Source: Escherichia coli
GTDB lineage: Bacteria; Pseudomonadota; Gammaproteobacteria; Enterobacterales; Enterobacteriaceae
DNA length: 64,000 nt
Assembly (NCBI RefSeq): GCF_036507355.1
Contig: NZ_AP027877.1
Reading direction: 5' to 3' (one strand)
Shown here one piece after another: positions 5,192 through 5,285 of this stretch (its first letter is position 1; every line of letters begins with the position of its first letter). The position numbers and the translations under genes were made by a program. Below the pieces are notes generated by a model that was not told the origin of the DNA, did no database searches, and saw nothing but the letters and a program-made list of their open reading frames with translations.

Positions 5192-5207
5192 GATAAAACG
5201 TTTTATC
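5192..5207. promoter_or_regulatory. MalI operator box 1 (perfect 16-bp palindrome GATAAAACGTTTTATC)
   Basis: Perfect palindrome in the divergent malX-malI intergenic region; a LacI-family operator is expected here. Confidence 0.75.
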
Positions 5208-5269
5208 AAATTTTAGTGAGGCATAAATCACATTACGCAACGATAATAGCGGGTATAAGATAAATAAAA

Positions 5270-5285
5270 GGTAAAACGTTTTATC
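5270..5285. promoter_or_regulatory. MalI operator box 2 (GGTAAAACGTTTTATC)
   Basis: Second near-identical palindrome 78 bp from box 1, just upstream of the malI start. Confidence 0.7.

Follow-up and report, generated by a model that had tools for sequence, protein, structure and literature searches.

Between the divergently transcribed genes malX and malI of Escherichia coli lie two near-identical 16-bp palindromes. In the genome studied here the malX gene is frameshifted. This locus raises three questions: what do the palindromes bind, do they work as one unit or each for its own promoter, and what is left for them to regulate when one of the target genes is broken? We analysed the locus within a stretch of 64 kb of E. 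coli DNA (the window). Judged from sequence, the palindromes are very probably two independent MalI operators in a divergent, CRP-dependent malX-malI control region. The two sites and the genes that surround them are the following.

5192-5207, strandless: putative MalI operator 1 (malX-proximal), GATAAAACGTTTTATC, a perfect 16-bp palindrome with a central CG
5270-5285, strandless: putative MalI operator 2 (malI-proximal), GGTAAAACGTTTTATC, one mismatch (position 2) away from a perfect palindrome
5316-6344, plus strand: malI, LacI/GalR-family repressor, 342 aa, intact, ATG at 5316
3550-5141, minus strand: malX, PTS EIICB (maltose/glucose), ATG at 5141, broken by a 1-bp deletion at about 4076
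2368-3540, minus strand: malY, intact, coding for a cystathionine beta-lyase and MalT antagonist of 390 aa; second in the malXY operon

A first-pass annotation had described two 16-bp palindromes, one of them perfect, about 78 bp apart and situated between the divergent malX and malI starts. The coordinates turn out to be exact. The 78 bp are the distance from start to start (and equally from centre to centre), with 62 bp between the sites, and the start codons on either side are the ATG at 5141 on the minus strand and the ATG at 5316 on the plus strand. With the flanks included, the repeat extends to 19 nt (AAGATAAAACGTTTTATCA and AAGGTAAAACGTTTTATCA).

Such a pair of palindromes does not arise by chance. 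As a control, we shuffled the 64 kb window 100 times with its dinucleotide counts preserved. The window itself contains four matches to the palindrome with three or fewer mismatches; the shuffles contain 0.35 on average and never four. Copies with zero or one mismatch are found only twice in the window, and both lie inside the 174 bp spacer between malX and malI. A chance origin of the operator pair is excluded.

The other two matches, at 21421-21436 and 59221-59236, were considered as further MalI sites. Each has three mismatches and each overlaps a coding ORF; they are probably chance matches. The former (GATAAACAGTTTTTTC) lacks the central CG, and in the latter (GATATTTCGTTTTATC) the right half alone is intact and the left half is broken.

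What kind of protein would bind these sites? Operators of the LacI/GalR family are even-length palindromes with a central CG, a form shared by the two sites here and suited to a dimer with an HTH and a hinge helix (PMC4052901). The family rule asks for 16 to 22 nt around the central CG. Our sites are 16 nt long and carry the CG at positions 8-9 in all 160 copies of the comparative sample described below. The sites are also where a MalI operator should be, between divergent malX and malI and adjoining an intact malI. The encoded protein matches the NCBIfam model NF007449 ('Mal regulon transcriptional regulator MalI') with 667 bits, against a cut-off of 310, and contains the Pfam domains LacI HTH (residues 8-53) and Peripla_BP_1 (residues 65-341). 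Exactly the same protein is present in 113 blocks of the public collection.

Gene order is colinear with the E. coli arrangement add-malY-malX / malI-hdhA-uidR. Of 5,426 complete E. coli genomes, 5,418 match the region, with identities of 95-99.3%. The malY gene starts 9 bp past the normal malX stop. Its product differs at three amino acids from MalY of strain PE164 and matches Pfam Aminotran_1_2 and the NCBIfam PatB-family C-S lyase.

The control region is almost letter for letter that of K-12. Between 5100 and 5360 the sole difference from K-12 MG1655 is base 5286 (A for T), which lies directly 3' of operator 2 and outside both sites. Hence the operators are the same as those of K-12 in sequence and position, and the 174 bp spacer differs at this base alone. 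In the locus as a whole, the differences from K-12 are a private 1-bp deletion in malX and one substitution in MalI, V282L; the control region is otherwise unchanged.

All E. coli relatives that we compared have a T at base 5286. Across genera this column is poorly conserved.

It had been proposed to compare the palindromes with published MalI sites, and we made this comparison indirectly. The oligonucleotides D71689/D71690 carry GATAAAACGTTTTATC under the label 'MalI DNA site' (Sellars et al. 2017, PMC5543585, supplementary file 3). The site at 5192-5207 is identical to this published site letter for letter, and the site at 5270-5285 differs from it by one mismatch. The same study, from the Busby/Lee laboratory, describes a 16 bp MalI target that is bound at both the malX and the malI promoter, and it uses arrays of 20 MalI sites, on which MalI:mCherry forms foci, as a fluorescent reporter-operator system (PMC5543585). 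For MalI it refers to Lloyd, Godfrey and Busby (2010). Two further studies show what MalI does. Inactivation of malI increases malX expression 7.4-fold and malY expression 6.2-fold (PMC12089948). In a metC deletion strain, malI loss-of-function mutations that raise malY expression are selected (PMC6296033). This in vivo literature on MalI binding and repression covers K-12 and BW25113.

How far does the arrangement extend beyond E. coli? Using the MalI protein of the window as the only bait and taking one genome per species, we collected 80 loci from about 20 enterobacterial genera (including Escherichia, Citrobacter, Salmonella arizonae, Enterobacter, Klebsiella, Kluyvera, Raoultella, Leclercia, Lelliottia and Trabulsiella). 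MalI identity among these loci goes down to about 70%. The footprint is conserved at every orthologous locus: in 80/80 a divergent malX is present, and in 80/80 exactly two sites with two or fewer mismatches to the palindrome lie upstream of malI, 78-79 bp apart. From start to start, the sites are 78 bp apart in the five loci of Escherichia and 79 bp apart in the 75 loci of other genera. The mean conservation of alignment columns is distributed as follows.

Operator 1 (80 loci plus the window): 0.968
Operator 2 (80 loci plus the window): 0.966
22-bp CRP site: 0.836
Remaining 120 columns of the spacer: 0.661
Coding sequence on either side: 0.84-0.85

Within the operators, the bases vary only at positions 2 and 15, which correspond by symmetry, and in rare cases at 7 and 10. 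At positions 1, 3-6, 8-9 (the CG in the centre) and 11-14, 160/160 copies are the same. With about 97% conservation, a fixed spacing and variation concentrated at positions 2/15, the operator pair may serve as a clean positive control when methods for finding operators are tested.

One relative deserves a separate remark. In strain PE164 (locus L001) the column of window position 5284 differs, and operator 2 reads GGTAAAACGTTTTACC, which is perfectly palindromic and belongs to the alternative G2/C15 type.

We read three further elements from the spacer.

5214-5235, strandless: CRP-like site TAGTGAGGCATAAATCACATTA, core TGAGG-N6-TCACA at 5217-5232 (TGAGGCATAAATCACA), centre at 5224.5
5190-5195, minus strand: predicted malX -10-like hexamer TATCTT, read from sequence
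5254-5259, plus strand: predicted malI -10-like hexamer TATAAG; TATAA is invariant in a 9-genus alignment and more than 0.9 conserved over the 80 loci

The CRP-like site is the sole match to TGTGA-N6-TCACA with two or fewer mismatches in the spacer. In the whole window 29 such matches were found and 28 are expected, so the match is not significant alone. Across genera, T5217, G5218, G5220 and the TCACA at 5228-5232 are invariant. Both malI and malX are CRP genomic-SELEX targets (Shimada et al. 2011, PMC3105977). The same paper describes malI-malXY as regulated by 'different CRP molecules' (PMC3105977), a description at odds with the one conserved CRP-like site that we find between the two genes.

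The two -10-like hexamers are arranged around the CRP-like site like mirror images. The upstream end of each lies 29.5 bp from the CRP centre at 5224.5, which is class II geometry. In a class II CRP-dependent promoter, the CRP site has its centre some 41.5 bp upstream of the point where transcription starts, and it overlaps the -35 region. With one CRP-like site and a -10-like hexamer 29.5 bp away on each side, the spacer resembles other divergent pairs of class II CRP-dependent promoters; it differs from them in that the left half-site (TGAGG) is weak. Simple scans of the spacer found neither a full sigma-70 -35/-10 promoter nor a terminator. The lack of a canonical sigma-70 promoter is expected for CRP-dependent promoters that have no -35 element. 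Relative to these predicted promoters the two operators are placed differently: operator 1 shares 4 bp with the malX -10-like hexamer, and operator 2 begins 11 bp downstream of the TATAA(G/A) hexamer of malI.

Compared to the other genera, Escherichia lacks one base between operator 2 and the TATAA hexamer of malI. In this genus the operator is therefore one base nearer to the -10.

A study by Lloyd, Godfrey and Busby (2010, FEMS Microbiol Lett 305:28) reportedly placed the malX operator at -24 to -9 and the malI operator at +3 to +18. It is also said to have found one CRP site, at -41.5 with respect to malX and at -43.5 with respect to malI. On the window, these coordinates presumably correspond to transcription starts at 5183 and 5268 and to a CRP centre at 5224.5, and they put the operators at exactly 5192-5207 and 5270-5285. 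The reported coordinates and the sequence therefore agree.

From these positions and from the literature, we propose the following mechanism. A MalI dimer on operator 1 would cover the malX promoter spacer and part of the -10. It would thereby keep RNA polymerase off the promoter, and malXY would be repressed. A MalI dimer on operator 2 would sit just downstream of the malI -10 and over the start region, where it would block either initiation or escape, leading to negative autoregulation of malI. The one CRP site (centre 5224.5) between the operators would be placed symmetrically for both promoters. We know of no inducer of MalI. The position of operator 2 over the start region is like that of LacI at lacO1, which is centred at about +11 of the lac promoter. 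Autoregulation is a property that MalI would share with most local LacI-family regulators (PMC4052901). The first-pass annotation had arrived at the same reading, MalI autoregulation together with malXY repression, and the identity with the published site, the identity with K-12 and the conservation in 80 loci all support it. As an element, the MalI operators have been fully described before (Lloyd et al. 2008 and 2010; Sellars et al. 2017).

What, then, do the operators regulate in a locus with a broken malX? The frameshift is real in the sequence, and it is a single indel: compared to K-12, the A of the His356 codon CAC is lost at about 4076, which changes ATCCACGCG to ATCCCGCG. As a consequence the malX frame stops at 4065-4067, after 358 codons. 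There is no homopolymer of the deleted base at this place; the deletion is no simple homopolymer slip.

None of the relatives that we compared shares the deletion. It is found in 0 of the 4,739 complete E. coli genomes that match an 80-bp probe across the site, where the best identity is 98.8% (exactly the gap). It is absent from the Escherichia representatives that we compared. It is also absent from loci that encode the exact MalI or the exact MalY of the window; all of these have a MalX of 530 aa, and their DNA is about 1.3% diverged from the window. The truncated MalX product is not among the recorded proteins. The lesion is private, and is either recent or a sequencing or assembly error.

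Most of the MalX protein remains encoded in two pieces. The deletion hits MalX right where its Pfam EIIC match ends. The N-terminal fragment, 358 aa and EIIC-like, covers positions 1-314 of the 319 positions of the PTS_EIIC profile, almost the whole Pfam match. An in-frame ORF at 3550-4044 on the minus strand, 164 aa long, corresponds to MalX 367-530 and carries PTS_EIIB together with the last membrane segments. The ATG of this ORF lies 21 nt after the premature stop. If translation reinitiated there, then the two pieces might reassemble as a working transporter under the MalI operators. We regard this as highly improbable, because no Shine-Dalgarno sequence is evident before the ATG of the 164-aa ORF and because the cut lies inside the membrane domain.

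The first-pass annotation suggested that in this strain 'regulation may persist for a dead gene'. It was right about the frameshift. The suggestion itself stands only in part: the malX promoter also drives the intact malY, and malI is intact too. Since malI and the co-transcribed malY are both intact, the operators do not serve a dead gene alone. Furthermore, the deletion is private (recent or an error), and hence unchanged operators are expected and need no special explanation. The circuit here would control malY and malI plus a broken malX, which means that MalI would regulate malY without a working MalX. Polarity could lower malY expression, as the premature stop lies about 520 nt ahead of malY. 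In itself the frameshift is an ordinary strain-level lesion.

Instead of operators in use, the sites could be functionless relics of a decaying locus, in which malX has died and the operators and the regulator have yet to degrade. The frameshift in malX speaks for this reading. The other components show no decay. MalI is intact, one residue away from its K-12 counterpart and widespread as an exact sequence; malY is intact as well, and is a demonstrated MalI target with physiological roles of its own (PMC12089948, PMC6296033). Compared to K-12, neither of the operators nor the CRP site has changed, and the private deletion leaves too little time for any 'persistence' to need explaining. We therefore consider relics unlikely. 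Even if the sites are functional operators, they could still form one cooperative unit, in which a MalI tetramer or two interacting dimers loop the intervening 78 bp, like LacI or GalR, and neither promoter is controlled without the pair of operators. Two near-identical operators that flank the promoters at a near-invariant spacing (78 or 79 bp) would fit a loop. However, 78-79 bp correspond to 7.4-7.5 helical turns, which puts the two sites on opposite faces of the helix, and looping is not expected for operators out of helical phase. The protein argues against a loop as well: on the LacI-family profile of 358 positions, the alignment of MalI (342 aa) runs from 3 to 327, and MalI thus, different from LacI, lacks the C-terminal tetramerisation segment. 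Both on helical phase and on the tetramerisation domain we reject a LacI-type looping operator pair. The near-invariant spacing has a simpler explanation, since each operator is fixed to its own promoter (to its own -10) and both promoters are fixed to one CRP site, with both -10s 29.5 bp away from it. In addition, Lloyd and colleagues reportedly found in 2010 that each operator is functional without the other. Taken together, a loop that both promoters depend on is very unlikely.

The palindromes could also act at the level of RNA instead of binding a protein as DNA; a 5' stem-loop of the malI leader, for instance, might make the mRNA more stable or regulate its translation. The malI transcript is predicted to include operator 2, which forms a 6-bp hairpin in the MFE structure. 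But the leader as a whole folds no better than shuffled sequences (z = -0.85; 38 of 200 shuffles are as stable), and operator 1, being upstream of where malX starts, would fall outside the malX mRNA. Variation among relatives points the same way. In 41 of the 80 operator-1 copies A2 occurs together with C15, a non-compensatory change that would break a base pair of the stem. Non-compensatory variation at positions 2/15 fits the recognition of DNA half-sites by a protein and not an RNA stem. With a z of -0.85 and non-compensatory variation, we reject the hairpin as the function of these sites; its probability is negligible.

The finding matters little beyond annotation. A reading made from sequence only has correctly recovered a regulatory element of textbook level.

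The nearest complete E. coli RefSeq genomes are about 99.1-99.3% identical to the window over a colinear core of 50 kb. From about 50000 to 64000, rspAB is followed by a Qin-like defective prophage (integrase, excisionase, relBE, hokD, ydfU, cold-shock genes and lysis genes). The best E. coli genomes cover only 82% of this end of the window, and its repeated or IS-like pieces match up to 44 places per genome.
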